Part shown: piece after piece, positions 38,487 through 60,860 of the stretch
Layout of the letters: each line of letters begins with the position of its first letter
How positions within the stretch are numbered: the stretch's first letter is position 1
From: a plasmid
DNA length: 64,000 bases
Direction: 5' to 3' (one strand)
Sequence record: NZ_CP069398.1
The notes under the pieces: model-generated
Databases searched by the model: none
What the model saw: the letters and a program-made list of their open reading frames with translations, nothing else
Told to the model about the DNA's origin: nothing
Made by a program: the position numbers and the translations under genes

Positions 38487-38494
38487 AGTTATAA

Positions 38495-40323: not shown

Positions 40324-40419
40324 CGCAATAGCGAAAATCCTTGTTGTTTTGTAGGGGAAACGAAGAAAATCAGACATTTTTCTATTTGAAAATGCTTTGA
40401 AAAAGTGGAGGAATGAAAA

Positions 40420-41892: not shown

Positions 41893-42090
41893 TCCGCACC
41901 TCCCTGGAAGGCTATTGGTATGAAGAGAGCAAACCGAGGTTGGATTTGACAGATAATTGTTACGCGATTTACCCAAGGAACTTAAAGTATTTGTTGAATC
42001 CTTATGGTTCCATAAGGAGACCATGAAGAACAACAAATGGGTAGCATAATAATACAGGCTATTTTTTGTAATTTAAAGGAGGAAACTCAA

Positions 42091-42984
42091 GTGAAAGTAG
42101 GATTAATTGGATTAGGGAAAATGGGTATGAACTTAGGAAAAAACTTAATTGACAATAAACACCGTGTAATGGCGTTTGATCTAAATACAAATACTATTGA
42201 AGAAATTAAAAAATACGGAGTTGAAGGAGCATCCAGTTTACAAGATCTTGTTCAATCATTAGAAAAGCCACGAGTTGTTTGGATAATGGTCCCACACTCC
42301 GTCGTTGATTCAGTTATTAGTGAAATCACACCATTTCTAAGTGAAGGAGATATCGTCATTGAAGCTGGTAATTCGCATTATAAGGAATCCATTCGTCGTT
42401 ACGAACAGTTGAAGAAAGTTGGAGTGAGCTTTATGGATGCCGGTACTTCTGGGGGGATGGAAGGTGCTCGCTATGGTGCTTGTTATATGATTGGTGGAGA
42501 TCCTGAAGCATGGAGCATTGTCGAGCCGATTTTTAGAGATACAGCTGTAGATAATGGGTATTTATATGCTGGGAAATCTGGTAGTGGCCACTTCTTAAAA
42601 ATGGTCCACAATGGAATAGAATACGGAATGATGGCCGCCATTGGTGAAGGATTCGAAGTCCTGGAAAAAAGCGATTTCGATTTTGACTATGAAAAAGTGG
42701 CACGGGTGTGGAATAACGGTTCTGTCATCCGCTCATGGCTCATGGAATTGACAGAACGCGCATTTTCTAAAGATGCAAAATTAGATGAAATTAAGGGCAT
42801 TATGCATTCTTCTGGGGAAGGGAAATGGACAGTTGAAACCGCTTTGGATCTTCAAACAGCTACCCCTGTTATCGCTATGTCTTTACTAATGCGTTACCGT
42901 TCATTAGACAATGATACATTTACAGGTAAAGTGGTAGCTTCCCTTCGTAATGAATTTGGCGGACATGCTGTGGAAAAATCATAA
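42091..42984 (+). CDS. 6-phosphogluconate dehydrogenase (decarboxylating), short ~300-aa form (YqeC/GndA-like)
   Basis: The GTG start at 42091 follows AAGGAGG. It has the Rossmann fold GLIGLGKMGMNLGKNL plus GGDPEAW and KMVHNGIEYGMMAAIGEGF. Confidence 0.8.
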   Translation: MKVGLIGLGKMGMNLGKNLIDNKHRVMAFDLNTNTIEEIKKYGVEGASSLQDLVQSLEKPRVVWIMVPHSVVDSVISEITPFLSEGDIVIEAGNSHYKESIRRYEQLKKVGVSFMDAGTSGGMEGARYGACYMIGGDPEAWSIVEPIFRDTAVDNGYLYAGKSGSGHFLKMVHNGIEYGMMAAIGEGFEVLEKSDFDFDYEKVARVWNNGSVIRSWLMELTERAFSKDAKLDEIKGIMHSSGEGKWTVETALDLQTATPVIAMSLLMRYRSLDNDTFTGKVVASLRNEFGGHAVEKS

Positions 42985-43094
42985 AGTCATCTGCTGTATA
43001 TGTCTTTCGTTAAAATGAGCCGGAAATTCATTGGATTTTTAGTTTGGTATATCCCAAAAATTGGTAGATTTACTTAAGTCGTTGATAGTGCTAA

Positions 43095-43300
43095 CTATGT
43101 TGATTGAAGCGGAAGGAGCGAGACTCCTCGAAAATGCATTCACATTTTCTCGTGCGGTGCCTATTCACGGATGATGATTCAACGTCCTGCGGGAAAAACA
43201 TGACAAGGGAGACCCCGCAGCCGCACAGCGCCGAGGAGGCTCCCGGCTCGCCCGCGGAAAGCGAGCACCTGGAGCCAACAGACAAGTTTAACAGAGCCAA
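43095..43300. other. GC-rich multi-hairpin intergenic element of unknown function
   Basis: Four local hairpins, GGAGCGAGACTCC, GAAAATG-CATTCA-CATTTTC, CTGCGGG-N20-CCGCAG and GCTCGC-CCGCGGAAA-GCGAGC, sit in an AT-rich context. ORFs across the region on both strands have implausible composition. Confidence 0.35.
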
Positions 43301-43330
43301 AAAAATAAAACAATATTGAGGTGTGACATC

Positions 43331-43822
43331 ATGAACGTATTGGATGCAAAAATCATTAACACACAATATGGTTTAGAAACCTATTTAGACATGGTGAAGA
43401 ATATCGAAGTAAAAGAACTCCATTCTCCATCAGATAATGAGCCCTTTTATGAAATAGTATTAGGGATAGAGTATTTTCTTCTAAGGGACGGAAAATATTA
43501 TGATAGTGAAAGGAATTATTTTCGGATTCAAATGAGCGAAGATTTTAATTCAATCACGTTAAGAGAGACAGATACCGAAAGTTTATTTGCTGTCAAAACC
43601 GAACACGAGAGAGACTCAACTAAGCTACTGGTTGGAGAATGGCTTATAAAAACCAATGCTTTCAAGCAAGTAATAAGTGAACTGATCCAACAAAAGAAAA
43701 TGGAGAATGTTCAAAATGAGGGAGACACTCGAAAAGTATTAGGAACGATAAGATTCTTGGAAATATTACTTGAAATCAAAACAGAAGACATACTAAGTGC
43801 CGATGTAGAGAGGGACCATTGA
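43331..43822 (+). CDS. hypothetical protein
   Basis: The ATG at 43331 lies 7 nt after GAGGTG. A 163-aa acidic product. Confidence 0.45.
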   Translation: MNVLDAKIINTQYGLETYLDMVKNIEVKELHSPSDNEPFYEIVLGIEYFLLRDGKYYDSERNYFRIQMSEDFNSITLRETDTESLFAVKTEHERDSTKLLVGEWLIKTNAFKQVISELIQQKKMENVQNEGDTRKVLGTIRFLEILLEIKTEDILSADVERDH

Positions 43823-44062
43823 GTTTTCTTAATACTAACTGTCTTTTAATGTACGCTATTGATAATTACACGGTCCCACTAAGGATTTTTCAAAATTGAA
43901 AAGGGGGAGTTTAAATGTGTTTTTAAAAACTTCCCTTATATACTGTAGAAAAGGAGAATGCACTAACATGAAACGTTTTACTATGCCGAGAGATCTTTTT
44001 TACGGAGAAGGATCTCCGATTGAAGCAGCTAAGCTAAATTTGATTGAAAGGGGAAGTAATGT

Positions 44063-45400
44063 ATGACTATTTCGTTTGATTACTCCAATGCATTAGCATT
44101 TATGAAAAAGAGTGAAGTAGATAATCTAAGTGAATTTGTAAAAGTGGCTCATAAAATGCTACATGAAAAAACAGGCCCCGGCTCTGATTATCTTGGTTGG
44201 GTCGATTTGCCACTAAACTATGATAAGAGTGAATTTGAAAGAATTAAACAAGCTGCTGAAAGAATCAAGAAACATTCAGACGCAATGGTTGTAATTGGTA
44301 TTGGTGGTTCGTATTTGGGTGCAAGATCAGCTATAGAAGCTTTGTCCCATAGCTTTCATAACCAAATGAACGATAAGACAAAAGTGTATTTTGCCGGTCA
44401 CAATATCAGTTCTACTTATATATCTCATTTATTTGAACTATTAGAGGGGAAAGATATCTCTGTTAACGTCATTTCCAAATCAGGAACAACGACAGAGCCA
44501 GCCCTTGCTTTCCGTATTTTTCGTGACTATATGGAGAAAAAATACGGAAAAGAAGAGGCGAGAAAACGTATTTTTGCCACTACTGATCAGGAAAAAGGCG
44601 TATTAAAAAAGCTCGCGGACAAAGAAGGATATGAAACGTTTGTTATTCCGGATGATGTAGGTGGAAGGTATTCTGTGCTAACAGCAGTTGGTCTCTTACC
44701 AATTGCCGTAGCAGGACTTGATATTGATCATATGATGGAAGGGGCAGCAGCAGCAGCCCGTAAATACAACAATCCTGATTTATTGACAAATGAGAGCTAT
44801 CAGTATGCTGCGGTCCGAAATGTACTCTACAATAAGGGAAAAGCAATTGAAGTGCTTGTTAACTATGAGCCCTCCCTTCACTACGTATCGGAATGGTGGA
44901 AGCAGCTGTTTGGGGAAAGTGAAGGAAAAGATCAAAAGGGGCTATTCCCTGCTTCCGTTGATTTTTCAACGGATTTGCATTCCATGGGGCAATATGTACA
45001 AGAAGGTCGACGAAACCTTTTAGAAACGGTTTTACAGATTAAGAAACCTCGAATTGAAGTGACTATTCAGGAGGATCCAGAAAATATTGATGGATTAAAC
45101 TTCCTGGCAGGTAAGACGATGGATGAAGTCAACAAAAGTGCATTTCAGGGTACCCTTATGGCCCATATAGATGGAGAAGTACCTAATCTCGTGATTGAAC
45201 TGGATGAAATGAATGAATACACTTACGGTGAGATGGTTTACTTTTTTGAGAAGGCATGTGGGATTAGTGGCCATCTATTAGGAGTTAACCCATTTGACCA
45301 GCCTGGAGTCGAAGCATACAAGAAGAATATGTTTGCTTTACTTGACAAACCTGGTTTTGAAGCAGAAAAAGCTACTCTCATGGAGCGTTTATCAAAATAA
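44063..45400 (+). CDS. pgi: glucose-6-phosphate isomerase (Bacillus-type ~450 aa)
   Basis: The N-terminus [16 protein letters not shown]...[17 protein letters not shown] closely matches Bacillus Pgi. The SIS domains are present. Confidence 0.9.
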
Positions 45401-45409
45401 TTATATCTG

Positions 45410-45600
45410 ATTGGTTTTGTATTAATAAAAAGATTGTTACCAAAAACCATATTTTTTGTAACAATATTTATGAGAAATACTGATGCTTGATTTTACTAAT
45501 TTTATAGGTTACCAAAAATAATTACCAAAAGTTTTACCAAATACTTTTACAAAAATGATGTCTCTTGTACAATTAGATTATTAAATTGTGCAGGAGGCTT
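45410..45600. promoter_or_regulatory. res (resolution) site candidate upstream of tnpR
   Basis: TTACCAAAA-type motifs are repeated (TGTTACCAAAAACCA, GGTTACCAAAAATAATTACCAAAAGTTTTACCAAATAC). TGTNACA-like half-sites are consistent with three resolvase binding subsites. Confidence 0.45.
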
Positions 45601-45604
45601 CTTT

Positions 45605-46171
45605 ATGATAATCGGTTATGCTCGAGTTTCGACAGTTGACCAAAATTTAGACCGACAAATTATATTACTTTCTGAGTACGGCTGTGAAAAAATGGTTCAA
45701 GAGAAATTTACTGGGACTACAAAGGATAGAGATGGACTTAACTCATTGCTAGATGTAATAAGGAAAGGTGATACCGTTGTAGTAGAAAGTATTTCACGCT
45801 TAGGGAGAAAAACACTTGATATTCTTTCTATTATTCAGCAATTCGAGGATACTGGTGTAAAGTTCGTTTCTATTAAGGAGAACATGGATACAAGAACATC
45901 AACGGGAAAAGCCATGTTTCAAATGATGTGTGTCATCGCAGAGTTAGAAAGAAATTTAATTGTAGAAAGAGTTAAAGAAGGGTTAGAAGCGAGTAAAAGA
46001 AGAGGAAAAAAACTAGGAAGGCCTAAAGTGGATCAAGGGAAAATTGAAATAGCCTTGAGGATGTATGACAGTAAAGAATACTCGGTAAAAGAAATTGTAG
46101 AAGGTACAGGACTTTCACAGGGATCATTATATCGAGCGATTAATAAAAGAAAACTAGTAGAAGCAAATTAA
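45605..46171 (+). CDS. tnpR: serine recombinase / resolvase
   Basis: MIIGYARVSTVDQNLDRQ... carries the catalytic Ser, and the C-terminus is an HTH. The gene is co-directional with tnpA. Confidence 0.9.
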   Translation: MIIGYARVSTVDQNLDRQIILLSEYGCEKMVQEKFTGTTKDRDGLNSLLDVIRKGDTVVVESISRLGRKTLDILSIIQQFEDTGVKFVSIKENMDTRTSTGKAMFQMMCVIAELERNLIVERVKEGLEASKRRGKKLGRPKVDQGKIEIALRMYDSKEYSVKEIVEGTGLSQGSLYRAINKRKLVEAN

Positions 46172-46242
46172 TAATCTCTTATATTTTTAGGGAATTATGT
46201 GACGGACTAGGGCAGCTACTCTGTCACCACCCCCAACTTAAT

Positions 46243-49209
46243 TTGAATGGAGTTGGTAATTTGGCATCTATAGAACGTACGGCTTATCCAAGATTTAAAA
46301 AACGTCCTACTTCAAAAGAACTTCGTGATGTTTACTCCCCTACACCTGAAGAAAACCAATTTGCGCATAAAGTTGCTAGAGGACCTGTTTCAGTTCTAAG
46401 TCTATTAGTTATGTTAAAGTCTTTCCAACGACTTGGTTACTTTCCTCGACCGAAAGATATTCCTGTAGAGATCATGATTCATATTCGGACCTGTTTGAAT
46501 CTCTCTGCTAGTGTTGAACCGAATTACAATAGTAAATCAATTTACCGACATCAAAAAGCAATTAGAGATTACCTCAATGTACGTCCTTATGGAAAAGAAG
46601 CCTTACATATTGCAACTACTTCAATTTATAAGGCTACACAGGTAATGGACAATCCAGCCGATCTTATCAACGTATCCATTGAAATATTAATAAAAGAAAG
46701 GTGTGAATTACCTGCTTTTAGTACATTAGATCGATTGGCTCGTCGTATAAGAACATTAGTGAATCACCAGTTATTTAATTCAGTATTTTCAAAATTGACT
46801 CCTGAAATTGAGCGAAAATTAGATCAATTACTAGTTACTAAAAATGATAATCGGACTTCTGAATATAACTTATTAAAAGAAATTCCAAAAAGCGCAACAC
46901 TTTCGCATATGAAAGAAATACAAAATAGGTTACTTCTGTTAACTGATTTTATAGAAGAAATTGATAGCTTACTAGAGGATATTCCAAATTTAAAAATTAA
47001 ACACTTCGCTTTAGAAGCAAAAGCGCTTGATGCATCAGAATTAAAAGACTTTAATTTAGCTAAAAGATATATGCTGCTACTTTGTATGATTTATCGCTCA
47101 AAAATTTCAGCTATAGATAGTTTGGTAGAGATGTTTCTCAAAAGAGTCAGAACAATACATAACAAAGGCAAAGAGGAGCTAGAACTTCTTCGAGAAAAAC
47201 ATAGATCAAAAACTGAAAATCTTATATCTGTTTTGGCGGAAGTCTTAAATGCCACAAGTATAAATGAGAACGATACCTTGACTGGTCAGAAAATAAGGGA
47301 GTTATTAGGGAGAAGAGGTGGTATCGACGCATTAAAAGAAGATTGTGAATCAATTTCATCATATAATGGCAATAACTACCTTCCTCTTTTATGGAAGTTC
47401 TATAAAAGCCACAGGAAAACTCTTTTTAGATTGATTAGTATGATTGAAATTAATTCAACCACACAGGATCAATCACTTTTAGAAGCTTTACAATTTTTAC
47501 GTGATAATGAGAACCGAAAAATTGAAAATCTACAAATAGATTTGGATCTTTCATTTGCTAGTGAACAGTGGAAAAAAACGATTTATGTACCTAAAGAAAA
47601 TAACTTAATCCATCGTAAACACCTTGAAATCTGTATTTTTTCCTATCTTGCAAGCGATTTAAAAACGGGAGACCTTTGTGTAAAAGGATCAGAGAATTTT
47701 GCTGATTACCGTGAACAGCTCCTTTCTTGGGATGAGTGTAAACCTATGGTAGATGAATACTGTAAGGAACTTGGCTTTTCTTCAAATTCAGGGGATTTTG
47801 TTCAACAATTAAAGCTCTGGCTAGGAGATACTGCACAAAAAGTAGATTTAAACTACCCTGATAACGGCCAGGTAATCATTAATGAAAATGGAGAACCAAC
47901 GTTGAGAAAAATAATGAGAAAAGAACAACCTCAGACAAGTAAGGCGTTAGAGGTAGTTATTTCTCAACGGTTACCTGAACGAAATGTCTTAGATATTCTT
48001 TGTAATGTAGAACATTGGACAAATTGGACACGGCATTTTGGACCATTATCTGGTTCAGATCCTAAGCTTGAAAATGCAATGGAACGTTATATCATTACTT
48101 CTTTTGGATACGGATGTAATTTAGGACCAACACAGACTTCTAAGCACATGAAAAAAGCAGTAACCCCACACATGATTTCATTTGTAAATCGGCGACATAT
48201 TAATGCATCTAAAATAGACGAAGCTATTCGTAATATTTTAAATCAATACAATCAATTTAGTTTGCCTAGACTATGGGGTGATGGAAAAACGGCTGCTGCA
48301 GATGGAACAAAATTTGATCTCTACGAAGAAAACTTAATCTCTGAATACCACATTCGATACGGAGGTTATGGGGGGATTGCATATCATCATGTTTCAGATA
48401 CTTATATTGCACTCTTTAGTCACTTCATTCCATGTGGAGTTTGGGAAGCAGTTTATATTATTGATGGTTTGCTGAAAAATAAATCAGACATTCAGCCCGA
48501 TACGTTACATGCTGATACGCAAGGTCAATCAACGCCTGTTTTTGCACTTGCACATTTATTGGGGATTAATTTAATGCCTCGTATTCGAAATTGGAAGGAT
48601 TTAAAATTTTACAGGGCTGATAAGGACACAAAATATCACCACATTGATCAGTTGTTTAGTGATACCGTTGACTGGGACCTAATTGAAACACACTGGCAAG
48701 ATCTGCTCCAAGTGGTTCTTTCTATAAAAGCTGGTAAAATATTACCCTCTACACTACTTAGAAAACTAAGTAACTATAGTAGAAAAAACCGATTATATCA
48801 AGCTTTTAGGGAATTAGGAAGGATTGTAAGAACTGTATTTTTGCTTAAATATATTTCTGATATAAAACTAAGAGAGCAAATTGGTGCTAGTACAAACAAA
48901 GTCGAAGCATATAACGGCTTTTCCAAATGGCTATTTTTTGGTGGCGATGGGATCATTTCAGAAAATGATCCAGAAGAACAAGAAAAGCGAATTAAATATA
49001 ATGATTTAGTTGCCAACGCAGTAATATTCCAAAATGTATGTGATATAACACTTATTTTGTGGGAACTTTCTAAAGAAGGCTATGTATTTTCAAAAGAAGA
49101 TATTGTCATGCTTAGCCCTTATCTGACTAGGCATATAAAACGTTTCGGAGACTATATGATCGATTTAGAAAATATTCCACAACCAATCGAGGGAGATATT
49201 CCTGTATAG
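46243..49209 (+). CDS. tnpA: Tn3-family DDE transposase
   Basis: The 988-aa length is typical. It ends about 50 bp inside the right IR. The C-terminal catalytic region includes ...DGTKFD... and ...LHADTQGQS.... Confidence 0.8.
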   Translation: MNGVGNLASIERTAYPRFKKRPTSKELRDVYSPTPEENQFAHKVARGPVSVLSLLVMLKSFQRLGYFPRPKDIPVEIMIHIRTCLNLSASVEPNYNSKSIYRHQKAIRDYLNVRPYGKEALHIATTSIYKATQVMDNPADLINVSIEILIKERCELPAFSTLDRLARRIRTLVNHQLFNSVFSKLTPEIERKLDQLLVTKNDNRTSEYNLLKEIPKSATLSHMKEIQNRLLLLTDFIEEIDSLLEDIPNLKIKHFALEAKALDASELKDFNLAKRYMLLLCMIYRSKISAIDSLVEMFLKRVRTIHNKGKEELELLREKHRSKTENLISVLAEVLNATSINENDTLTGQKIRELLGRRGGIDALKEDCESISSYNGNNYLPLLWKFYKSHRKTLFRLISMIEINSTTQDQSLLEALQFLRDNENRKIENLQIDLDLSFASEQWKKTIYVPKENNLIHRKHLEICIFSYLASDLKTGDLCVKGSENFADYREQLLSWDECKPMVDEYCKELGFSSNSGDFVQQLKLWLGDTAQKVDLNYPDNGQVIINENGEPTLRKIMRKEQPQTSKALEVVISQRLPERNVLDILCNVEHWTNWTRHFGPLSGSDPKLENAMERYIITSFGYGCNLGPTQTSKHMKKAVTPHMISFVNRRHINASKIDEAIRNILNQYNQFSLPRLWGDGKTAAADGTKFDLYEENLISEYHIRYGGYGGIAYHHVSDTYIALFSHFIPCGVWEAVYIIDGLLKNKSDIQPDTLHADTQGQSTPVFALAHLLGINLMPRIRNWKDLKFYRADKDTKYHHIDQLFSDTVDWDLIETHWQDLLQVVLSIKAGKILPSTLLRKLSNYSRKNRLYQAFRELGRIVRTVFLLKYISDIKLREQIGASTNKVEAYNGFSKWLFFGGDGIISENDPEEQEKRIKYNDLVANAVIFQNVCDITLILWELSKEGYVFSKEDIVMLSPYLTRHIKRFGDYMIDLENIPQPIEGDIPV

Positions 49210-49257
49210 TATATAAGAAAGTAAAGAGCAAGAAAGGGTTATAAATGGTAAACAATA

Positions 49258-49299
49258 CCATACTATGACCCTTTTTTACATGTATCTCGGTCGTACCCC
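49258..49299 (-). repeat. Tn3-family terminal inverted repeat (right)
   Basis: The reverse complement, GGGGTACGACCGAGATACATGTAAAAAAGGGTCATAGTATGG, matches the left IR at 39/42. Confidence 0.85.
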
Positions 49300-49304
49300 A
49301 AGTA
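49300..49304. repeat. target-site duplication AAGTA (right copy)
   Basis: Identical to 36164-36168. Confidence 0.8.
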
Positions 49305-49326
49305 TGTCCCATAGCAAACACCTTTT

Positions 49327-49914
49327 CTAATTGTTATTTTTTAAAGACGAGATAATCTTATTAAAGTTTTCTATTATATGAATTAGTTCTCTAATTAGCA
49401 ATAATAAAATAATTATACAAATGGAAATGATTAAATATTGCCATGATTTATATCCAAATGCATAAACAGGGTTATTCGTATTTATTAAAGTATCAATAGA
49501 GAACAATGAATTTTTATTAAATGAAATTAAAAGTGCGGTTATAATGAGAAGAATATTTCTCACAACCAGTTTCCACGATAATTGATGATTCCCTAAAACT
49601 CCTCCACATCCACATGATATTTCTGTACGTCCCCGTAATAAATTTATAGAAATAGCAGTAATATAGACAAATAACAACGAAACTGCGCCTATGATAGCTA
49701 CTATTTCTAAAAGTCCGATTATTAGAAGTATTCCAACGGCTAATTCTGCTATAAAGTCCAATCTTCCAGCTATCTTAGAAAAATTAGAAGGTATTACTTT
49801 ATAATCGCTAATTATTCCAATATGTTTATCAAAATTGTTATATTTTGAAATAGCACTACTTAGAAAGATAAACGCTAAAAATACCCTTAAAAATAATTCT
49901 AATGCTGAGTTCAT
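49327..49914 (-). CDS. MauE/DoxX-like integral membrane protein
   Basis: Four to five TM helices and a CGCGG motif. The gene overlaps the ABC transporter stop by 4 nt (operon). Confidence 0.5.
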   Translation of the reverse strand: MNSALELFLRVFLAFIFLSSAISKYNNFDKHIGIISDYKVIPSNFSKIAGRLDFIAELAVGILLIIGLLEIVAIIGAVSLLFVYITAISINLLRGRTEISCGCGGVLGNHQLSWKLVVRNILLIITALLISFNKNSLFSIDTLINTNNPVYAFGYKSWQYLIISICIIILLLLIRELIHIIENFNKIISSLKNNN

Positions 49915-51725
49915 ACAAGCACCTCTTGAACTTCTTTCTTATCTTGATACCATTGAGCCTGACTATTATACATTTCTGCGTATAGGGCACCTAATTTTAT
50001 TAAATCATCATGAGTTCCTTCCTCAACGATCTGTCCATTTTTTAAAACTAGAATACGATCCGCAAGTTTAGCAGAGGCCATTCTGTGAGAAATAAATAAT
50101 GTCGTTTTATCTTTAGAAAGTTCATTAAACTTGTTATATATATTTAATTCCGTGATAGGGTCTAAAGCTGAAGATGGTTCATCTAATATTAATACCTCAG
50201 CATCCCTAAATAATGCTCTAGATATAGCGATTTTTTGCCATTGTCCACCAGATAAATCCACTCCACTCCCCAAAAAATTCCCTAACAAAGTATCGTATCC
50301 CTTATTAAGCTTATTGATAAAATCATGCGAATCTGCCAATTGAGACGTAGCTAGTATCTTTTCTTTGTTATTTATTTCACCAGTAGAACTTATTGCTATA
50401 TTCTCAAAGGCTTTAAAGTAATATTTCATAAAATCTTGAAAGATGATGGAGAACTTGTTTCTTATGTCATTAGGGTTTATATAATTTGAATCAATATTAT
50501 CATATAAAATTGACCCACTGGTTGGTTTGTACAAACCTGCTAAACACTTAACTAAAGTAGTTTTCCCGGAACCATTCCTACCAACAATGGCGATTTTCTC
50601 CCCTGGTTTAATTGTTAAAGAAATATCTTTCAGAATCTCATTTTCACTATTTAAATATCTGAAAGAAATGTTCTTTAATTCTATACCCTTCTGCAATTTT
50701 TCATGTAAGAGCTGTTGCACTTTTCGATTGTCATTTAATTCATCTTCAGTGTTATAATCTACAAATTTATAATAATCATTAATATATAATGATTTCTCAT
50801 AAATTTGCGCCAAATCAACTGCAATTCCATTAATTGAACTTTGAGTAGTATGGACTGCTTCACCTATTACAACAAACTCCCCAATTTGAATTTTGGTTTT
50901 TTTTATGAGCCATATTATAATGAATGCTGCCCCTCCGTAAAACAAAGCCGATGCTCCATCTAAAGCAATTTTAGATTGATGTTCTTTTTTGGCTAACAAT
51001 AAATTTGCTTTATTATTCTTAATAAATTTTTTAGACCACTTATGTAATAAAAAATCTCTTAAATTAAAAGAACGGATTTCTTTAGAAGCTTCCCGAACTT
51101 TGATCAATTGTGAAATATAATCAGCCTCACGAGCTTCAGGTGTAGTATTGTATAGCAACCAGAAGCGTTTATCTCCAAATTTAGAGTTAATAATAAACAT
51201 AGGTATACATACAACTAAACTAAAGACTACTAAAGACCAATGGATGCTAAATAAGAACCCTAGCATAGAGATTAAAGTAATAAAAGTCCTAAAAATTTGT
51301 ATTACTGACTTAAAAGGAGCCAAGAAAGCATTCCCACTACCATCTAATCTCGATAAATGATTGTAAAAATTATTATCATCAAAATACTCTAAAGGAATAG
51401 AGGAAGCCCTTTTTAATATTTCAGATTCTAAATAATAATTTAAATGCAATTGGAATTTTTTATCTATATAGTCATTAATATTAGTTATAAATGTACTAGC
51501 TAAAGAAATGAATAACTGTAAAATTAACAATGTAATTGGTAAAGAAAAATCATAATCAGAGTGATTGATGCTGTAAGCTAAGGAGTTAACTAGTTCTTTA
51601 GTTATGAATAGTACGAGAACAGGCACAACCCCTAATAAAATATTAGAAAAAACAGAAATAAAAATCCAAGATTTTCCCATGGACCAAATTAATTTAAAAG
51701 CTTTTGTCATGTTAATTATGTTCAA
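49911..51725 (-). CDS. fused ABC exporter (6-TM permease plus ATP-binding domain), bacteriocin/peptide-export type, without C39 peptidase domain
   Basis: Walker A GRNGSGKTT, signature LSGGQWQKIAISRAL and Walker B ILILDEPSSALD. The N-terminal half is a hydrophobic transmembrane domain. Confidence 0.8.
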   Translation of the reverse strand: MNIINMTKAFKLIWSMGKSWIFISVFSNILLGVVPVLVLFITKELVNSLAYSINHSDYDFSLPITLLILQLFISLASTFITNINDYIDKKFQLHLNYYLESEILKRASSIPLEYFDDNNFYNHLSRLDGSGNAFLAPFKSVIQIFRTFITLISMLGFLFSIHWSLVVFSLVVCIPMFIINSKFGDKRFWLLYNTTPEAREADYISQLIKVREASKEIRSFNLRDFLLHKWSKKFIKNNKANLLLAKKEHQSKIALDGASALFYGGAAFIIIWLIKKTKIQIGEFVVIGEAVHTTQSSINGIAVDLAQIYEKSLYINDYYKFVDYNTEDELNDNRKVQQLLHEKLQKGIELKNISFRYLNSENEILKDISLTIKPGEKIAIVGRNGSGKTTLVKCLAGLYKPTSGSILYDNIDSNYINPNDIRNKFSIIFQDFMKYYFKAFENIAISSTGEINNKEKILATSQLADSHDFINKLNKGYDTLLGNFLGSGVDLSGGQWQKIAISRALFRDAEVLILDEPSSALDPITELNIYNKFNELSKDKTTLFISHRMASAKLADRILVLKNGQIVEEGTHDDLIKLGALYAEMYNSQAQWYQDKKEVQEVLV

Positions 51726-51754
51726 TTTAAATCACCTTAGTCTTTACATTTTGT

Positions 51755-52270
51755 TCATTTAGTAAGAAATGAATGTAGCTTTCCTGCTAATGAGGTTACC
51801 ATCTCAATTTTTCCGTCATGATTAATAAAAATAAACGTTGGATATTGAGATATATCTGCTCTGTCCAAAAATTCTTTTGAGTACGGTAATGTTTTCACTG
51901 AGTCTTTATATTGATAAATAAACTCTTTAATTTTATTTTTTTCCTCATCTCTATTTCCAGATGCCACAGACATGACATAGTATTCAGCTTTATATTTATT
52001 TTTATTTTTTAGTAATTGTTCAAGTGCTACATGACAACTTGAACAACTAGTTAAAGAAACCTGTATGATTAACCTTTTGGAAGGAATATTCCAGTTGTGT
52101 GGCATTATTGTTCGAATATCTTCTCCCATCAAAGAGTGTTCTAGTTGTTCTACATTAGCTTCTATATTGGGTAAATAGCTCAATTCTATATTTAATGCTC
52201 GATACTGACAAAAATTAAATATTAATAGTATAAAAAAGCAGACACATATAATGCTTAAAATAATGTTCAT
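51755..52270 (-). CDS. membrane-anchored thioredoxin-like thiol-disulfide oxidoreductase
   Basis: A signal anchor, then LTSCSSCHVA (CxxC), then a thioredoxin fold. Confidence 0.6.
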   Translation of the reverse strand: MNIILSIICVCFFILLIFNFCQYRALNIELSYLPNIEANVEQLEHSLMGEDIRTIMPHNWNIPSKRLIIQVSLTSCSSCHVALEQLLKNKNKYKAEYYVMSVASGNRDEEKNKIKEFIYQYKDSVKTLPYSKEFLDRADISQYPTFIFINHDGKIEMVTSLAGKLHSFLTK

Positions 52271-52447
52271 AAAGACACTTCCTTAAATTTACATAACCTT
52301 GGGAGGTATACAAGGCAAAAAATAAAATGCTTACCTTTTCCTATAATTAAAAATTTAATTATAGGAAGGGAGCATTCTAATCTGTTTTGAATAAGATCCA
52401 GTTAATTAATAACCTTTGTAATTCAAAAGATAAATAGAGTTGCTAAA

Positions 52448-52630
52448 TTAAGAAGAAGATTTACAACAACCAATCTTTTTCTTACTACCGTCACGACAAA
52501 TTTGATATTTCACTGGCGTTGGCTTTAAAATACCAGAACAACTAGTGAAAAATTCGTCCTCACACACCGTTGAACAAAAAGTATCTGCTTGAGTAGTTAC
52601 TCCAAGGCTTTTCATGAACTTTTGTAACAT
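52448..52630 (-). CDS. Cys-rich small secreted peptide precursor (candidate disulfide-rich bacteriocin-like peptide)
   Basis: The 60-aa product is MLQKFMKSLGVTTQADTF-CSTVCEDEFFTSCSGILKPTPVKYQICRDGSKKKIGCCKSSS. Six Cys lie in the C-terminal ~42 aa. AAGGAGG lies 8 nt upstream. It is the first gene of the Trx-ABC-MauE-TlpA operon. Confidence 0.5.
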   Translation of the reverse strand: MLQKFMKSLGVTTQADTFCSTVCEDEFFTSCSGILKPTPVKYQICRDGSKKKIGCCKSSS

Positions 52631-52722
52631 ATGTATAACCTCCTTTTTTTTACATTGTTTATTTTAACCATATTTTTCATATGTGTAAATAGAATTATTA
52701 AAATTTTCCTAAAAAAATGTCT

Positions 52723-52750
52723 ATTATATCTAATTTGAACTTTCTGTTAA
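52723..52750 (-). promoter_or_regulatory. sigma-A-like promoter for the peptide operon
   Basis: On the minus strand, TTAACA and TATAAT are separated by a 16-nt spacer, about 90 nt upstream of the peptide ATG. Confidence 0.4.
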
Positions 52751-52756
52751 TTAATC

Positions 52757-52812
52757 AAGGAGAAGACAGGAACCTTAGAGAAATTCTTTAAGGTTCCTGT
52801 CTTCTCCTTGTA
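52757..52812. terminator. long perfect hairpin (20-bp stem), terminator or insulator between the upstream gene and the peptide operon
   Basis: CAAGGAGAAGACAGGAACCTTA-N12-TAAGGTTCCTGTCTTCTCCTTG. Confidence 0.55.
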
Positions 52813-52832: not shown

Positions 52833-53228
52833 TTAGACTTCTTTAAGAAATGGGCTACTAATTATTGTATATCTCCGAGCGAACTTTTTATAAGAAATCT
52901 CTGTATAATGATTTCCTTTTTGAAGAGTAAGAGTTTTATGTTTTAGATCTTTCTCCGTTAGTTTATATCCTTTTTCTTTCATCATACTGATATATGTATC
53001 TAGATGCCCTTTAGGTACTAAGTATAAGATATTATTATCTACATCTGATGTTTCTGCGATCTCCTTCTTATTGAATTCTAACTGATAAATAGCTTTTACA
53101 TTTGCGATTGGCCTATTGTCCCCAAATATAGATTGCCAATTAATAAATATAATTACTAATAAAACAATCATTACTAATATAAACCCAAGAGTAAATTTAA
53201 AAATTCTATACATTAAGACTTCCTCCAA
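52833..53228 (-). CDS. membrane-anchored hypothetical protein (immunity-protein candidate)
   Basis: An N-terminal TM helix. The likely start is the internal Met (MYRIF...). It is adjacent to the peptide operon. Confidence 0.4.
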   Translation of the reverse strand: MEEVLMYRIFKFTLGFILVMIVLLVIIFINWQSIFGDNRPIANVKAIYQLEFNKKEIAETSDVDNNILYLVPKGHLDTYISMMKEKGYKLTEKDLKHKTLTLQKGNHYTEISYKKFARRYTIISSPFLKEV

Positions 53229-53409: not shown

Positions 53410-54006
53410 TTAGTAATTGTATAATACTGTTCCTTGCTTTAAAGATACTGTTCCTGAACCAAGGTTGACTAATTTAATTTTGTAAGACTTACCTTTCGGA
53501 AGGATACCATACTTCTCGAAATTAACACTTCTCCAACCAGCACCCTTAGCTGTTACACCTTTTCCGTAGTATTTACCTGCACTATCATAAACTCTAACTT
53601 CAAGGCTCTGCCCCGATGAATTTTCCATATCGATACACGCTAAATTCTTAAAGGTAGTGCCATCTTTTACCCATTTAGATGTTTTAAAAGTATATTTCCC
53701 AAAATCAACCCCAGTATATTTACCGTAAGGGTAGGACTTGCCCGCAGCTTCTATTTGAGCTTCCACCGAAGTTGACATGCTTTGTTTAGATTGTGAATTC
53801 TCCATCAAGGATTTAATAGCATATTCATAGCTTTCAAAATTAATTTCTTGATCTAGTTCATCATTACTTATTTCACTGTCATCAATTTCTTCGCTTCCAT
53901 CAGCGAGGGCAGTATTACTTACACTAAAGAGCGTAGCTGCACTAAAAGCTGTAACAACTAATTTTTTAATAAAACCTGAATTATTCATACCTTCGGTATG
54001 AGTCAT
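53410..54006 (-). CDS. secreted hypothetical protein
   Basis: Signal peptide KKLVVTAFSAATLFSVSNTALA, then an acidic region, then a Gly/Lys/Tyr-rich beta-like domain. The likely start is the internal Met at MNNSGF. Confidence 0.45.
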   Translation of the reverse strand: MTHTEGMNNSGFIKKLVVTAFSAATLFSVSNTALADGSEEIDDSEISNDELDQEINFESYEYAIKSLMENSQSKQSMSTSVEAQIEAAGKSYPYGKYTGVDFGKYTFKTSKWVKDGTTFKNLACIDMENSSGQSLEVRVYDSAGKYYGKGVTAKGAGWRSVNFEKYGILPKGKSYKIKLVNLGSGTVSLKQGTVLYNY

Positions 54007-54099: not shown

Positions 54100-55560
54100 A
54101 CATGGCTGTTTTTAGACAGACTACTCCCTTGAAATAAAAATTGCTTTTTAAATTAAACCAATAAGTTCGTTATTCTATCTTCAATTTATGAATTCGGCTA
54201 AGCACTTTCCAAAAGAATTCTTGATAAACGAAACTTGAAGATAATTTAAAGTAAAGGGATCGCCCTGACTTTACCAATTTACTAGCCACTTTAATGATCC
54301 TAGTACGTATGGTCTCTATTTGCATGTTCTTTTGTTCTTTTGGAAAGGAAAGGGTCCGCAGCCAATTTGTTAAGTTATAGGCTAGAAGACTTACCAACAT
54401 CTTTACTTCATTCACTTGGAATGCGTGGCTATTCATTCTATCTAAATTGAACCCATTTTTGGCTTCTTTGATGTAGTTCTCCATCGTCCCCCTTTTTTGA
54501 TAAGCAAGGACGATGTCCTTTGTAGAAAAGGCATCTACTAAATTGGTTACAAAGAACGAATGGATAAAAAACAGTTCATTCGCTGGGCGTACAGATTTAA
54601 CAATTACTTTTCTTGGTTTGGCCCATGATTTCGCTTGATAAATAGTTTCTTCAAAGTAGCATTCAGTTTTTGTAACATCAGATGGCATTGATGAAGGATG
54701 GAGTTCTTCTGCAATCCTCTGTAGATTAGCATTAGATTTTAGGCGGATGACAAAGTAAACCGATTCTTTGTCGCACAAATCATATAATGCAGGAACAGCA
54801 AAGCCACTGTCTCCACGAACAAACAATGTAGTCGCTGGGAATTTATCATTATAATGTTCAATCAGTGGTTGTATGAATTCTACTACACCAGTAGAGGTAT
54901 ACACATTTCCAGGACGTAGTTTAGCTTTAAGAAAATCGCCTGTTACGCCATCAAAGGCAACTAATGGATGGAAACCAACCGTTCCATAATGGGAATTAAA
55001 AGCCGCCTCTTCTTGATTGCCATAGGTGTCTGAATGAGTAGAATCCAGGTCAAAGATGAGTGCTTTCGGGAGTCCTTGGGACTCTCTGAATTTATGTACT
55101 TTATCCAGTAGTTCTTGATTGGCATGTTCCAATTGTAGGATTGACTGTTGATCAAACCGTCTAAAAAAACGGGATAAACTTGGCTGGGAAGCTAACGCAT
55201 CTGTTCCAAGAACTTGGGTAAACACCGGATCTTGTGTTAATTGATCTGCAGCGTCATCTTCAGAATACCCGGCAATTAGTTGATAAATCTTTTGCCGAAG
55301 TAAATTTTCATTTGAATGAATAAAGTAAGCCCTTGTGTCTTTCAAACTTAGATGGGTAGCTAAGGTCTTTGAAAAACCGAGTTTTTCATCGAATTCTCGA
55401 AAGATGAATTCACCTGTATCAGAGGAAAGAGAACCTCCATCATTTGATACTTTAATCTTACGATTGAAATTTAGAGTTAATTGCGGTAAAGTAGCCATTA
55501 AAAGAATCCTTTCTGATGGTTATTTCGTGGGTGTTTTAACCTTATCAGAAATGGATTCTT
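54100..55560 (-). mobile_element. IS4-superfamily (IS1380-like) insertion sequence, boundaries not resolved
   Basis: A single DDE transposase gene with short AT-rich flanks. No convincing terminal IRs could be aligned by eye. Confidence 0.4.
54170..55498 (-). CDS. DDE transposase, IS4 superfamily (IS1380-family-like)
   Basis: The 442-aa product has FDLDSTHSDTYGNQE...HYGTVGFHPL...VRGDSGF..., the DDE pattern seen in IS1380/IS4-type transposases. Confidence 0.6.
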   Translation of the reverse strand: MATLPQLTLNFNRKIKVSNDGGSLSSDTGEFIFREFDEKLGFSKTLATHLSLKDTRAYFIHSNENLLRQKIYQLIAGYSEDDAADQLTQDPVFTQVLGTDALASQPSLSRFFRRFDQQSILQLEHANQELLDKVHKFRESQGLPKALIFDLDSTHSDTYGNQEEAAFNSHYGTVGFHPLVAFDGVTGDFLKAKLRPGNVYTSTGVVEFIQPLIEHYNDKFPATTLFVRGDSGFAVPALYDLCDKESVYFVIRLKSNANLQRIAEELHPSSMPSDVTKTECYFEETIYQAKSWAKPRKVIVKSVRPANELFFIHSFFVTNLVDAFSTKDIVLAYQKRGTMENYIKEAKNGFNLDRMNSHAFQVNEVKMLVSLLAYNLTNWLRTLSFPKEQKNMQIETIRTRIIKVASKLVKSGRSLYFKLSSSFVYQEFFWKVLSRIHKLKIE

Positions 55561-56848: not shown

Positions 56849-57982
56849 ATGTTTGAGAAACTAAAATTACGTGGCCAATTGATTAAAGCGTTTCGCACGG
56901 CAGAAATTTATCGAGTCATCAAGCGTGGAGACCGTACCTCGTATCAATTTCCAAAGATCCATCAGATTGATCATCAGCACACCTACACTCGGTATGCTTT
57001 TTCATTACTTAATGGCATTGATCCTGAACTCTTAAACAAAAAAAGATGGGCGTTACGGCAAGTATTAGGTAGCAACATTGAAGTGAATGGCAGCTTAAAG
57101 AATTTTAGTATTACCGTTCATCATAAGGGCTTGCCTAAGATGCTCGAATACAAATATGAAGCCATTCATGCTCACATTGAGAAAATGGAGCTTCCAGTAT
57201 GTATTGGTCAAGATATCTATGGAAACCCCGTTTCATGGGATTTTGCGGATTTAGAAACGTTACTGATTTCTGGCGAAATCGGTGCAGGAAAAAGTAGTCT
57301 CATGCGTGTCATCCTCACAACGTGGGTAAAGTACACCTCACCTTCCGATTTACGATTAGTGTTAGTGGATCTCAAAAGAGCTGATTTAGGCTTATTTCAT
57401 GGCATTGAACATGTGGATGCGCTTTGTTTTGAAGCGAAAGACATGCGAAAGCCTTTTGCCTTATTACGGTCTGAAATGTATCGACGAGGAGATTTATTGT
57501 TAGAGCATGGTGTGACGCATATTAGCCGGCTTCCTTTTAAGCTGCCTCGGATTGTCGTCGTTTTAGACGAGATGAGCATCATTAAGCGAGAAACGGAGCT
57601 TGTAGAGATGGTGCAGCAATTTGCAACTCAAGGTCGTGCGTTAGGCGTTCATACGATTATTGCGATGCAGCGTCCTGATGCTGATTTGTTGAACTCAGCA
57701 CTAAAGGCGAATTTACGTGTAAGGATCTCTGGAAGGCAAGCAGATGCCACCAATGCGAAAGTAGCCGGAGTGATCGGAGCAGAAGAAATCGATGCAGCAG
57801 CCAGGGGACGTATGAAAATTAAAATAGACGACGTTAAAGAGTTTCAAGCCTATTTCTTGGATGAAGGAGCTTGTAAGGAAATACTTTCACCATATAAAAC
57901 ACGGGTGAAAGATTCTGAGCCACAAATAGAGGTTGTGTCACAGCCTCTATTTGGATTATTAGAGAAGGAGGAACAACGATGA
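56849..57982 (+). CDS. FtsK/SpoIIIE-family DNA-translocase ATPase (Tn916 Orf21 / TraB-like)
   Basis: Walker A GEIGAGKSS, Walker B IVVVLDEM and the family motif HTIIAMQRP. Confidence 0.7.
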   Translation: MFEKLKLRGQLIKAFRTAEIYRVIKRGDRTSYQFPKIHQIDHQHTYTRYAFSLLNGIDPELLNKKRWALRQVLGSNIEVNGSLKNFSITVHHKGLPKMLEYKYEAIHAHIEKMELPVCIGQDIYGNPVSWDFADLETLLISGEIGAGKSSLMRVILTTWVKYTSPSDLRLVLVDLKRADLGLFHGIEHVDALCFEAKDMRKPFALLRSEMYRRGDLLLEHGVTHISRLPFKLPRIVVVLDEMSIIKRETELVEMVQQFATQGRALGVHTIIAMQRPDADLLNSALKANLRVRISGRQADATNAKVAGVIGAEEIDAAARGRMKIKIDDVKEFQAYFLDEGACKEILSPYKTRVKDSEPQIEVVSQPLFGLLEKEEQR

Positions 57983-58674
57983 GTTTTCGGTTATCTCAAC
58001 GTGATAAAGACATCATTGGGTTTATCAATCAGTTTCGAGCTGTGGATCGAGACTCATTAGTTGAACGGTTCTTTAAACAGCTTAAATCGCCTGTAAATGC
58101 GTGTAATAGCGTCATGGTACGTTTATACCGGTTAGGGCTTATCGAACGCACACAGCAGTATTCTCCAACGGTCTATTTGCCTGTAGATGCCAAGATTAAA
58201 AAGAACTCGCAAAAAATACTCCATTTCCTTTCAATTCTAGATGTCTATAAGCAAATGAGTTCGTATAGTACGCCTAAGAATGTCATTGTGGAAGATAAGC
58301 CGACTGGACGTAAAGGAGGCATTGAGCCAGATCTTTTTTGTATCTTTAAAGGATCTCCCTTCTGGATTGAAATTCAACGAAATCAGTATTCAGAACAAAA
58401 GATGGAACAAAAGATCAAGTTATATGAGGAGTTTCTCTTTTCTGACGAATGGAAAACGTTGCATTGGCAGCCAGAAGATCGAGCAGCTGTTTTTCCTTCC
58501 GTTATTCTTATTACACCTGTTCGGTATGCTGTTTCCTCAGATCACATCCGAATTATACAAGTGGCAAGCATACATGAACTCATGGAAAAATATAAGAGTC
58601 CTACTAAGCAGCAAAGAGGGGCAAAAACAAAGGTAAGCCCTTCTTCTGGAGAAATTAAAATCAATCTAACATAA
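57979..58674 (+). CDS. replication-relaxation family protein candidate (winged-helix)
   Basis: Overlaps the FtsK-like stop. The N-terminal wHTH, LSQRDKDIIGFINQFRAVDRDSLVERF, resembles replication-relaxation domain proteins that accompany FtsK-like genes on small integrative elements. Confidence 0.4.
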   Translation: MSFRLSQRDKDIIGFINQFRAVDRDSLVERFFKQLKSPVNACNSVMVRLYRLGLIERTQQYSPTVYLPVDAKIKKNSQKILHFLSILDVYKQMSSYSTPKNVIVEDKPTGRKGGIEPDLFCIFKGSPFWIEIQRNQYSEQKMEQKIKLYEEFLFSDEWKTLHWQPEDRAAVFPSVILITPVRYAVSSDHIRIIQVASIHELMEKYKSPTKQQRGAKTKVSPSSGEIKINLT

Positions 58675-58678
58675 ATAA

Positions 58679-58702
58679 GCACATCTGTTGGATGTGCTTT
58701 TT
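58679..58702. terminator. bidirectional terminator hairpin
   Basis: GCACATC-TGTTG-GATGTGC followed by TTTTT. Confidence 0.5.
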
Positions 58703-58934
58703 AAATATCAAAAAAATCTTCTGCTTTTGCATTGGGGTCAATCTTTCGTATTACCTTCATGATTTTTCCTATCGTTCTTGTTGTAGGTGAACGATCATTA
58801 CTGTTTGCTAAATCTCCTATTGTATTTCTCCCTAATCCTGACTGTCTTACAAGCCATTCTTGGTCTATTTTATGCTTATCTAAAAATTTCCCTAGCTTGC
58901 TACGCTTTTTTCTAGAACCGAACAAGGTTTTCAC
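58701..58934 (-). CDS. small HTH DNA-binding protein (XRE-like)
   Basis: QEWLVRQSGLGRNTIGDLANS is an HTH, and the N-terminus is basic. Confidence 0.5.
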   Translation of the reverse strand: MKTLFGSRKKRSKLGKFLDKHKIDQEWLVRQSGLGRNTIGDLANSNDRSPTTRTIGKIMKVIRKIDPNAKAEDFFDI

Positions 58935-59340
58935 GCTCCAATACTTTTTATGTTCTAGTTATGACCAGTTTCACTAAAAATAAACCCCTATATATAGGGA
59001 ATACCGGACAAGCAGCGCTCATATCATTTATTAAGACTTCATTTTAAAACATCAAGAATAGAGTCGAAAAAGTGTCTTTTTAACGTTGGAAGGAAATTAA
59101 AAGTCTAAAAATCCAAGAAGCGCGTGTAGACCAACAGTACGGTATCATTCTGTGTATCATACATATATAGATAGCCTTTTCAGATTACTAAGTTAGACCG
59201 AAATCAAATTATAAGATGTTTGCTGGCGTCAAATTGAATAATGTCGATATTTTTGTCATAAACATATAGCATGAATACAGCTAAGACCGCCTTATACACT
59301 AATACATAATGGGCGGTCTTTGTTGTAGGTATGCACAAAT

Positions 59341-59394
59341 AATAACTGACTTAAAAGGCATACGTTTTAAAACGTATGCCTTTTAAGTCAGTTA
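59341..59394. repeat. 54-bp perfect palindrome (27-bp arms, no spacer)
   Basis: ATAACTGACTTAAAAGGCATACGTTTT|AAAACGTATGCCTTTTAAGTCAGTTAT. It is not followed by a U-run on either strand. Confidence 0.8.
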
Positions 59395-59573
59395 TTACAA
59401 GAATAAGATTGAAGAAAAAATACCATAGATTATGCAAATGGGGTTCGTCAAAAGTTATTTTATCAAAAAATGTGAAAACACTAAATATGGAAATATAATC
59501 AATTGAATGGTTTTATTTGGAATTAACTAGGAATTTAGTTTTGATTATAGATGGTGGTGGGAGATCCCGTTAT

Positions 59574-60377: not shown

Positions 60378-60467
60378 AAATAACTCTCCCTTCACGTGTT
60401 ATTATATATAGAATAACATTGCCAAAAAAACATTTGTATACTTTTTCCAATAACCTTAAAGGTTTAT

Positions 60468-60737: not shown

Positions 60738-60860
60738 AGAGACTTTTTAAATTGCATCGAATGAAGAGTTATACGTAAAATAAAAGTTAATTTCGTCAGA
60801 GAGCGTTTCTCAGTCAAAAAAAGAAGTACCAAATTAGTTGGTCACTTCTTTTTCTACATA

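Follow-up and report, generated by a model that had tools for sequence, protein, structure and literature searches.

Four closely packed open reading frames (ORFs) on the minus strand, from 52.7 to 49.3 kb of a 64,000-nt window of the plasmid record NZ_CP069398.1 (positions are counted within this window), belong to a five-gene cassette whose core comprises a Cys-rich precursor peptide, a thioredoxin-fold CxxC protein, an ABCB-type ATP-binding cassette (ABC) exporter, a MauE protein and a MauD-like CxxC redoxin. This locus probably forms a self-contained maturation and export cassette for a ribosomal, leader-bearing, Cys-rich peptide, most likely a bacteriocin. By analogy of function, its nearest counterparts appear to be the sublancin operon and the pediocin loci. 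The sublancin operon of Bacillus subtilis SPβ, sunA-sunT-bdbA-sunS-bdbB, also joins the precursor of a Cys-containing bacteriocin to an ABC exporter of its own, along with a membrane thiol oxidase and a thioredoxin-like protein (PMC4336743, PMC6391423). It follows the scheme proposed for the cassette, disulfide formation and export being handled by dedicated genes. The cassette differs from it by the lack of a glycosyltransferase, a MauE protein in place of the DsbB-type BdbB, an exporter without a C39 domain, a leader that is not of the double-glycine type, an extra MauD-like redoxin and the lack of a conserved SunI-like immunity gene. In pediocin loci, a CxxC thioredoxin-like accessory protein (PedC), needed for correct disulfides, is likewise encoded next to the exporter (PedD) (PMC4919988, PMC5465099), whereas the cassette lacks a YGNGV sequence and a PedB-type immunity gene, and its exporter carries no C39 domain. 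In the cassette, the thioredoxin-fold accessory protein would be cytoplasmic and is fused to the N-terminus of the exporter in one genus. PedC, in contrast, is regarded as extracytoplasmic.

The same gene order, mauE followed by mauD, together with a Cys-rich client, is found in methylamine dehydrogenase clusters. Canonical MauE shares with the protein of the cassette the RGRxxIxCGC loop and apparently also a Lys on transmembrane (TM) helix 1 and a Glu on TM helix 2. Canonical MauD, as in Paracoccus, has the architecture of the redoxin of the cassette, with a short uncharged N-tail, a TM anchor, a basic segment and a CxxC thioredoxin fold. The cassette departs from mau clusters in that the CGC motif of its MauE is followed by Gly-Gly and not Phe-Gly, and in that this protein has an extra fifth TM helix. 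Moreover, no mauA, mauB or mauG gene was found in the window cassette or in any of 17 non-redundant loci of the family, in contrast with the true mau cluster of a Paracoccus kondratievae plasmid (locus L022). The client would be an exported peptide of ~45 residues handled by an ABC transporter, whereas the mau client is a protein with a twin-arginine translocation (Tat) signal. According to a 2026 preprint, MauE proteins from two phyla replace DsbB in Escherichia coli, the CXC motif in the TM3-TM4 loop is essential, the Lys on TM1 and the Glu on TM2 line the predicted quinone site, and MauE probably acts via a thioredoxin-fold partner such as MauD (10.64898/2026.03.05.709764).

The closest prior report is that of decRiPPter, which lists three candidate Streptomyces families of peptides that are made ribosomally and modified after translation (RiPPs) with mauE, one of them also with mauD (PMC7794033). 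As in the cassette, mauE stands there beside a small Cys-rich precursor while the rest of the mau cluster is missing, and these families are uncharacterised too; the precursors listed there (e.g., MFKKLEAVGSALLERLVPRVDASAC...) display what looks like a comparable short N-terminal stretch, and their Cys, 8-10, are even in number (PMC7794033). They come from Actinobacteria and not from Bacillales, and carry at least 8 Cys versus 4-8 here. Laterosporulins are leaderless, defensin-like class IId bacteriocins of Brevibacillus with three disulfides. The peptide of the cassette resembles them as a small Bacillales peptide with six Cys, three predicted disulfides and a predicted β-rich fold, but it bears a leader and has no sequence similarity to them, and the structural match between its model and laterosporulin is not significant (Foldseek rank 32, TM-score 0.23).

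Composition of the cassette and its precursor family

Domains of the cassette proteins were assigned by searches with Pfam and NCBIfam models. All genes lie on the minus strand. The 60-aa precursor peptide (52448-52630), identified from the ORF list, homology, an alignment and a structure model, is followed by the 171-aa thioredoxin-fold protein with a CSSC motif (51755-52270), which was assigned from Pfam and NCBIfam matches, a natural fusion and its charge distribution. Then come a 604-aa ABCB/MsbA-type half-transporter made of six TM helices and a nucleotide-binding domain (49911-51725) and a 195-aa MauE-family membrane protein with five predicted TM helices (49327-49914). The fifth gene, encoding the redoxin, is split into a 5' fragment at 49300-49312 and a 3' part at 35634-36168. 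The six-Cys ORF, the CxxC thioredoxin-like membrane protein, the exporter devoid of a C39 domain and the MauE-type protein announced by the original prediction are all present. Its statement that lanthipeptide, sactipeptide and glycosyltransferase genes are missing is borne out as well, since no LanB/C/M/KC/L dehydratase-cyclase, radical-SAM, YcaO or glycosyltransferase domain occurs in the cassette genes or is conserved across the 17 loci.

The precursor (MLQKFMKSLGVTTQADTFCSTVCEDEFFTSCSGILKPTPVKYQICRDGSKKKIGCCKSSS) contains six Cys, all within residues 19-56. It consists of a leader (MLQKFMKSLG/V), a short spacer and a core holding C19, C23, C31, C45, C55 and C56 as well as a CRDGSK motif. 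All six Cys are invariant across the six closest peptide sequences, likewise M1, F5, G10, Y42 and the D47-G48-S49 triplet. Between the window and contig L002, a Logan assembly from a public sequencing run, the peptide gene shows 27 nt differences, 24 of them at codon position 3, which amount to 23 synonymous versus 3 non-synonymous codon changes; by this comparison, the gene is under purifying selection. Whereas a word-indexed search returned only the peptide's own cluster, distant members required an exhaustive profile search, which covered 1.84 billion representative proteins and brought just two further peptide clusters, P0005 and P0006, 45-51% identical. Both peptides are followed by thioredoxin-fold, ABC, MauE and redoxin genes in identical order, amid unrelated flanking genes. 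Thus, the peptide is conserved with its machinery in close as well as distant operons, and the lack of conservation that the original prediction had named as its own refutation is not what was found.

Aligned on the invariant Gly, the leader of the family reads M-[LIF]-x-x-[FL]-x-K-[LI]-[LIF]-G-[IV]. In general form M-φ-x-x-φ-x-K-φ-φ-G-[IV], it is 7-13 residues long and N-terminal. Its end is φ-G-[IV] rather than GG, GA or GS, and the cores beyond it are hypervariable. The number of Cys is even in all 23 precursors, with a CC pair near the C-terminus in 15 of them, and the YGNGV pediocin box was not found in any of the 23. Among 1,648 small ORFs in the family loci, every ORF with the leader pattern and at least 4 Cys adjoined a cassette. 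Nine precursors searched against Pfam and NCBIfam matched no model; database entries for precursors are all named "hypothetical protein", and several precursors carry no annotation. These features point to a new precursor family with a recognisable leader and 4-8 Cys that no Pfam or NCBIfam model covers. From an alignment of six sequences, AlphaFold predicts residues 1-16 to be disordered and residues 17-60 to form a three-stranded β-sheet (predicted local distance difference test, pLDDT, 75-87). In this small fold, the six Cys would form three disulfides.

The whole operon is intact on the Priestia megaterium plasmid NZ_CP071467.1 (81% DNA identity; cassette at 65336-69206), in which the redoxin gene is uninterrupted, and an intact operon is also carried by L002. 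The latter contig includes a second, divergently transcribed cassette (1664-3967, minus strand) with a diverged six-Cys peptide, thioredoxin-fold, MauE and redoxin genes, and a 383-bp gap at the position expected for the missing ABC gene. When the MauE alignment was used to scan one genome per species (185,579 species), 13 loci were obtained, all from Bacillales: Brevibacillus, Tumebacillus, a Paenibacillaceae metagenome-assembled genome, Bacillus spp., Longirhabdus and Fictibacillus. The same scan with the thioredoxin-fold alignment found nothing. By BLAST against six-frame ORFs, each of the 13 loci encodes ABC (35-44% identity), MauE (34-47%) and redoxin (27-36%) proteins; a thioredoxin-fold CxxC gene is present in each of them, in some cases too diverged for BLAST. 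One or two adjoining small ORFs with the family leader and 4-8 Cys accompany the machinery in 12 of the 13. A tblastn search of plasmids revealed 22 megaplasmids of the Bacillus cereus group with a related MauE, and the single one inspected (L021) carries the full cassette and two peptides.

Clustering of the ORFs of at least 90 aa from the 17 non-redundant loci left only the redoxin, the thioredoxin-fold/ABC pair and MauE as universal, with no other gene cluster common to more than three loci. Co-occurrence of the peptide with MauE- and redoxin-like genes in other genomes, suggested at the outset as a check, was searched and the genes were found across Bacillales as a unit. The cassette family appears from these comparisons to be Bacillales-wide and previously undescribed, and its precursor family, its MauE/MauD oxidase module and its thioredoxin-exporter architecture seem to be new. 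A precursor family with a fixed four-protein machinery could be mined for new disulfide-stabilised antimicrobial mini-proteins.

The exporter and the MauE/MauD-like redox module

The 171-aa protein displays one N-terminal TM helix, a CSSC motif and an ELSYLP motif, with a weak Thioredoxin_2 match (E-value 3.6e-4) and weak matches to StoA/ResA-like NCBIfam models. The 604-aa protein matches ABC_membrane and ABC_tran, MsbA and HlyB being the best curated models. The Pfam/NCBIfam search detected no C39 peptidase domain on it, and it enters its first TM helix near residue 21. Since the peptide lacks a Sec-type signal, the ABC protein is the obvious export route and would carry the peptide out of the cell. 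No protease is included in the core, and therefore the leader would be either retained or removed by a host protease.

The thioredoxin-fold and ABC genes abut or overlap. In Tumebacillus avium, both proteins form one in-frame 795-aa ORF, joined by a Lys/Gln/Gly-rich linker; the N-terminal part of this ORF belongs to the thioredoxin-fold family (profile comparison, probability 98.4%, E-value 1e-14). The NCBI annotation covers the 579-aa ABC part only; a mis-called ORF was nevertheless rejected in view of a 791-aa fusion from an independent assembly, 88% identical, in which the frame is kept across a diverged, shorter linker. No TM helix is found in the fusion between the thioredoxin domain and the first helix of the exporter. 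ABCB/MsbA-type exporters have a cytoplasmic N-terminus. Because such an exporter starts inside and no TM helix intervenes, the fused thioredoxin domain must be cytoplasmic, anchored by an N-out helix. The charges agree in 16 family members of the thioredoxin-fold protein, the 15 residues flanking the anchor helix holding, in total over these members, 3 Lys/Arg on the N side versus 35 on the C side. On the basis of the natural fusion and this charge bias, the exporter very probably has the first thioredoxin-fold protein as an accessory subunit in the cytoplasm, and catalysis of folding outside the membrane is not its likely role. Held at the inner face of the membrane, this protein would receive the precursor as the N-terminal substrate-handling module of the exporter. 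We infer that this domain takes the place of the C39 peptidase of SunT-/PedD-type exporters, which would represent a new exporter architecture.

The 195-aa protein matches the MauE model PF07291 with 88.8 bits (cutoff 27, E-value 4.8e-25). Its invariant loop RGRxEISCGCGG, between TM3 and TM4, includes the CGC active-site motif; SCGCGG is found unchanged in 19/19 family members, and the six closest ones all share K24 and E57. The redoxin, once its two parts are rejoined, comprises 180 aa. It starts with a TM helix, contains FLKNLR and CNMC motifs and is 76% identical to the product of the intact gene of a related plasmid. It matches AhpC-TSA and Redoxin in Pfam, and its best NCBIfam match is MauD (TIGR02661, E-value 3.6e-11), residues 5-157 aligning with positions 2-160 of the 189 of the model. 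The redoxin gene stands directly after mauE in 17/17 loci. A TlpA-like redoxin gene, assumed by the original prediction to have been part of the operon before a transposon arrived, did exist, although the interval given for the operon misses the gene. From its sequence, the protein is best described as MauD-like, forming a mauE-mauD pair with MauE.

Through its CGC active site, MauE would act as a DsbB-like, quinone-linked oxidase that re-oxidises the MauD-like redoxin, which in turn would oxidise the peptide. A literature search tying MauE to bacteriocins returned author-name matches alone, and the search combining it with thioredoxin, cysteine-rich and ABC transporter returned nothing. Since the first report of MauE as a DsbB-like oxidase dates from 2026, the cassette would provide it with a client outside methylamine metabolism, in genetically tractable Gram-positive hosts.

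In the window, the redoxin gene is split by a 13.1-kb Tn3-family transposon (36169-49299), recognised from its inverted repeats, its target duplication and domain matches. The ORF begins thirteen nt past the MauE stop with an ATG at 49312-49310 (minus strand). Its start reads ATGGGACATACTT and ends in TACTT, where the ORF is cut after 13 nt, past codon 4, by the right inverted repeat of the transposon (GGGGTACGACC...). On the far side of the element, the frame is taken up again at 36163 and the ORF ends at 35634. A 37-mer of the right end recurs inverted at 36169, and the inverted repeats extend over 67 nt (36169-36235 and 49233-49299, 87% complementary). TACTT flanks both ends as a 5-bp target-site duplication, its second copy lying at 36164-36168, and duplications of 5 bp are typical of Tn3-family elements. 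In-silico removal of 36164-49299 restores the 180-aa ORF. Besides genes for a resolvase and a Tn3 DDE transposase, the transposon carries a metabolic cargo that comprises HUMPS/OMPdecase and SIS genes (hxlA/hxlB-like, ribulose-monophosphate pathway) with an HxlR regulator, as well as zwf (glucose-6-phosphate dehydrogenase), a gnd-like gene (6-phosphogluconate-dehydrogenase-like) and pgi (phosphoglucose isomerase). Because the insertion splits the MauD-like gene, the window copy of the cassette is probably impaired and not fully functional. A 223-aa ORF (35634-36305, minus strand) begins within the transposon's left end and continues, without a change of frame, through what is left of the redoxin gene; an N-terminally extended redoxin could thus still be expressed from the transposon end.

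Possible functions and membrane side of the redox chemistry

A dedicated oxidative-folding and export pathway, unlike the lantibiotic, sactipeptide and sublancin gene sets, as the original prediction had put it, is supported by the conserved peptide and by the lack of cytochrome-maturation genes. We infer an antimicrobial role of the product from three traits: a conserved leader in front of variable cores, the presence of several paralogous precursors at one locus, and a patchy, plasmid-linked distribution. Several points weigh against a bacteriocin cassette. The peptide product, its disulfides, its activity and its export are predictions from sequence. No immunity gene or leader protease is conserved in the core across the 17 loci, which is unusual for a bacteriocin locus, and in one locus (L014, Longirhabdus pacifica, 1115-4842), the full set of thioredoxin-fold, ABC, MauE and redoxin genes stands without a recognisable precursor ORF in the flanks covered. 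Foldseek gave no significant match of the peptide model, which rests on six sequences, to the PDB (best E-value 0.88), and therefore no fold family is claimed. The redoxin scores 42.9 bits against the MauD equivalog model, far under the cutoff of 188.6. Finally, the inward orientation predicted from charges for MauE conflicts with the complementation of dsbB, which needs a periplasmic CXC.

The same machinery might serve a product that is not antimicrobial, either a pheromone or another secreted peptide signal, or a peptide rich in thiols that binds metal. Such a product would be compatible with the lack of a conserved immunity gene and with the strong acidity of several members (net charge -6 to -8 in Tumebacillus), atypical for bacteriocins, and metal could be bound through the spacing of the CxxxC and terminal CC. 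It is nonetheless considered unlikely because hypervariable cores, a conserved leader, paralogous precursors and a patchy plasmid-borne distribution fit bacteriocins; moreover, no receptor kinase or regulator is conserved nearby, and an even number of Cys in all precursors favours paired disulfides over the free thiols of a metal ligand. This even count also fits pairing better than another Cys chemistry (thioether or other cross-links, a persulfide, a metal cluster), which would make the product a heavily modified RiPP. Two points favour such chemistry: MauE-linked clusters figure among the candidate RiPPs of decRiPPter, and stable disulfides are unusual in the cytoplasm, towards which the redox proteins may be oriented. 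Disulfide exchange is, however, what CxxC thioredoxin folds and MauE carry out, and no modifying enzyme (radical-SAM, LanB/C/M, YcaO, glycosyltransferase or other) is conserved in the cassette; this explanation appears quite improbable. Still less probable is that the operon serves envelope redox chemistry in general, either as a cytochrome-maturation system of the ResA/CcdA kind or as a thiol exporter of the CydDC kind, with the small ORF being incidental; the former of the two had been raised with the original prediction. Indeed, the thioredoxin-fold protein and the redoxin match ResA/StoA models weakly (20.7 and 39.1 bits to ResA versus a cutoff of 170), and CydCD-type proteins are found among the distant ABC matches. 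But the small ORF is conserved, under purifying selection and always adjacent, no ccdA, resB or resC gene occurs in the window cassette or the related loci, and the exporter is encoded by a single ABC gene without a heterodimer partner, which scores 275 bits to MsbA whereas its CydC (176 and 136) and CydD (160 and 153) scores stay below cutoffs of 329-684.

Within the preferred reading of the locus as a bacteriocin maturation and export cassette, the side of the membrane on which the disulfides arise has to be considered separately. The thioredoxin-fold subunit, the MauD-like redoxin and the CGC loop of MauE could form a cytoplasm-facing relay, in which the disulfides would be made before export, the electrons passed from the peptide thiols to menaquinone and the cross-linked, folded peptide passed straight on to the exporter. 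The thioredoxin-ABC fusion, which forces the thioredoxin domain onto the cytoplasmic side, is consistent with this arrangement. The Lys/Arg bias seen for the thioredoxin-fold protein recurs in the MauD-like redoxin, with 7 in the N-flank versus 57 in the C-flank (15 residues on each side of the anchor helix) and a conserved FLNRFR right after the TM helix. In MauE, the mean Lys/Arg numbers reach 5.3 in loop 1, 3.1 in the CGC loop and 3.9 in the C-tail, versus 0.2 and 1.3 in loops 2 and 4, so that the side of the CGC loop is the positive one. By these charges, the CGC loop and the MauD-like domain may face inward; direct reading of the sequences shows that the positive-inside rule holds for the exporter and the 131-aa protein of the locus. 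Canonical MauE and MauD of the P. kondratievae plasmid (L022, 4923-6694) share the same pattern, and their substrate MauA possesses a twin-arginine leader (TSRRGAIG), which fits folding before export.

The relay remains doubtful, however. Two MauE homologues (UniProt B8FLW7 and H1XRV2) restore periplasmic disulfides in E. coli without dsbB, and their CXC is periplasmic according to TOPCONS (10.64898/2026.03.05.709764). In addition, membrane topology is usually conserved within a family, the cytoplasm of Bacillales is reducing, and the charge rule is a prediction and not a measurement. Should the relay be true, canonical MauE and MauD would oxidise the Tat-signal protein MauA before translocation, and MauE-family proteins would exist in two opposite functional orientations. 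This topology conflict makes the membrane side of MauE/MauD action testable.

Expression signals, neighbouring genes and other features of the window

A GGAGG ribosome-binding site, read directly from the sequence, is located 8 nt 5' of the ATG of the peptide gene (52639-52643, minus strand). The original prediction had also announced a strong promoter. The ribosome-binding site is present and an 11/12 match to a promoter, TTAACA-16-TATAAT, exists at 52723-52750 (minus strand), but it is not conserved in two orthologous loci and was rejected as the operon promoter; promoter-like matches in this AT-rich region are no commoner than in shuffled sequences (29 found versus 30.2 expected). Sequence comparison points instead to TTTACA-17-TAAAAT (52661-52689, minus strand), conserved in two orthologous Priestia-type loci, as the likely operon promoter. 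An inverted-repeat search revealed a terminator-like hairpin with a perfect 27-bp stem (52756-52810) that closes the upstream transcription unit, separating the gene of the 131-aa protein from the peptide operon. Another long hairpin with a U-tract (52317-52379, minus strand, folding z = -3.4) is found between the precursor and machinery genes, in an intergenic region that is 85% conserved. In bacteriocin operons, a hairpin after the precursor is the usual device giving more mRNA for the precursor than for the machinery. By analogy, the one found here would act as an attenuator or partial terminator.

Upstream of the cassette, a 131-aa membrane-anchored protein, N-in according to its flanking charges (52833-53228, minus strand), and a 198-aa protein with a signal-peptide-like N-terminus (53410-54006, minus strand) are encoded in Priestia-type loci only. 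The former is a possible immunity protein and was discarded as a core component because it is conserved in the Priestia lineage only. Directly downstream, a SpoVB/MurJ-like flippase of the MOP family (33797-35458, minus strand) is restricted to three Priestia-type loci. Loci L003 and L004 possess a MurJ gene upstream of the peptide (L003, 382-1665) that is unrelated in sequence to the SpoVB-like gene of the window. A core role was dismissed for these genes, as their products (553 aa in the window, 427 aa in L003) are dissimilar (E-value 0.53) and both are missing from most loci. That two lineages have a gene of the lipid II flippase type beside the cassette may be a clue to immunity or to the peptide's target; such genes may mark the lipid II flippase as the target, the extra copy being the immunity determinant. 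In two Brevibacillus loci (L008, 8146-12959; L011, 8466-13356), genes for a MacB-type ATPase and for an FtsX-type permease lie just downstream of the redoxin gene; the permease measures 1,373-1,400 aa and ends in a Peptidase_M1 domain. These genes could encode an immunity pump and/or a leader-trimming aminopeptidase.

The CPBP protease at 59.6 kb (59574-60395), previously put forward as a candidate for processing or immunity, was abandoned. It lies beyond an IS4-type transposase and plasmid-transfer genes, outside the neighbourhood conserved in orthologous loci. This transposase (DDE_Tnp_1_4, 54170-55498, minus strand) separates the cassette from the plasmid-transfer genes (56849-63302), among which a TraG/VirD4-type coupling protein is encoded at 60861-63302. 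Because of this transposase and of the transfer genes nearby, the cassette is regarded as part of a mobile, mosaic plasmid.

Elsewhere in the window, about 11 tandem repeats of 81-84 nt (11950-12965) are nested in a 936-aa ORF (10473-13283), where they encode a Ser/Gly/Glu-rich region; this ORF probably specifies a surface protein. Three direct repeats of GGGGAC(A/G)TAAAGGGGACAT units with a 32-nt spacing (20659-20773) are iteron-like and may mark a plasmid replication or partition site. A perfect 58-nt palindrome (59340-59397) with 29-nt arms and no spacer is located just downstream of the CPBP-like gene.

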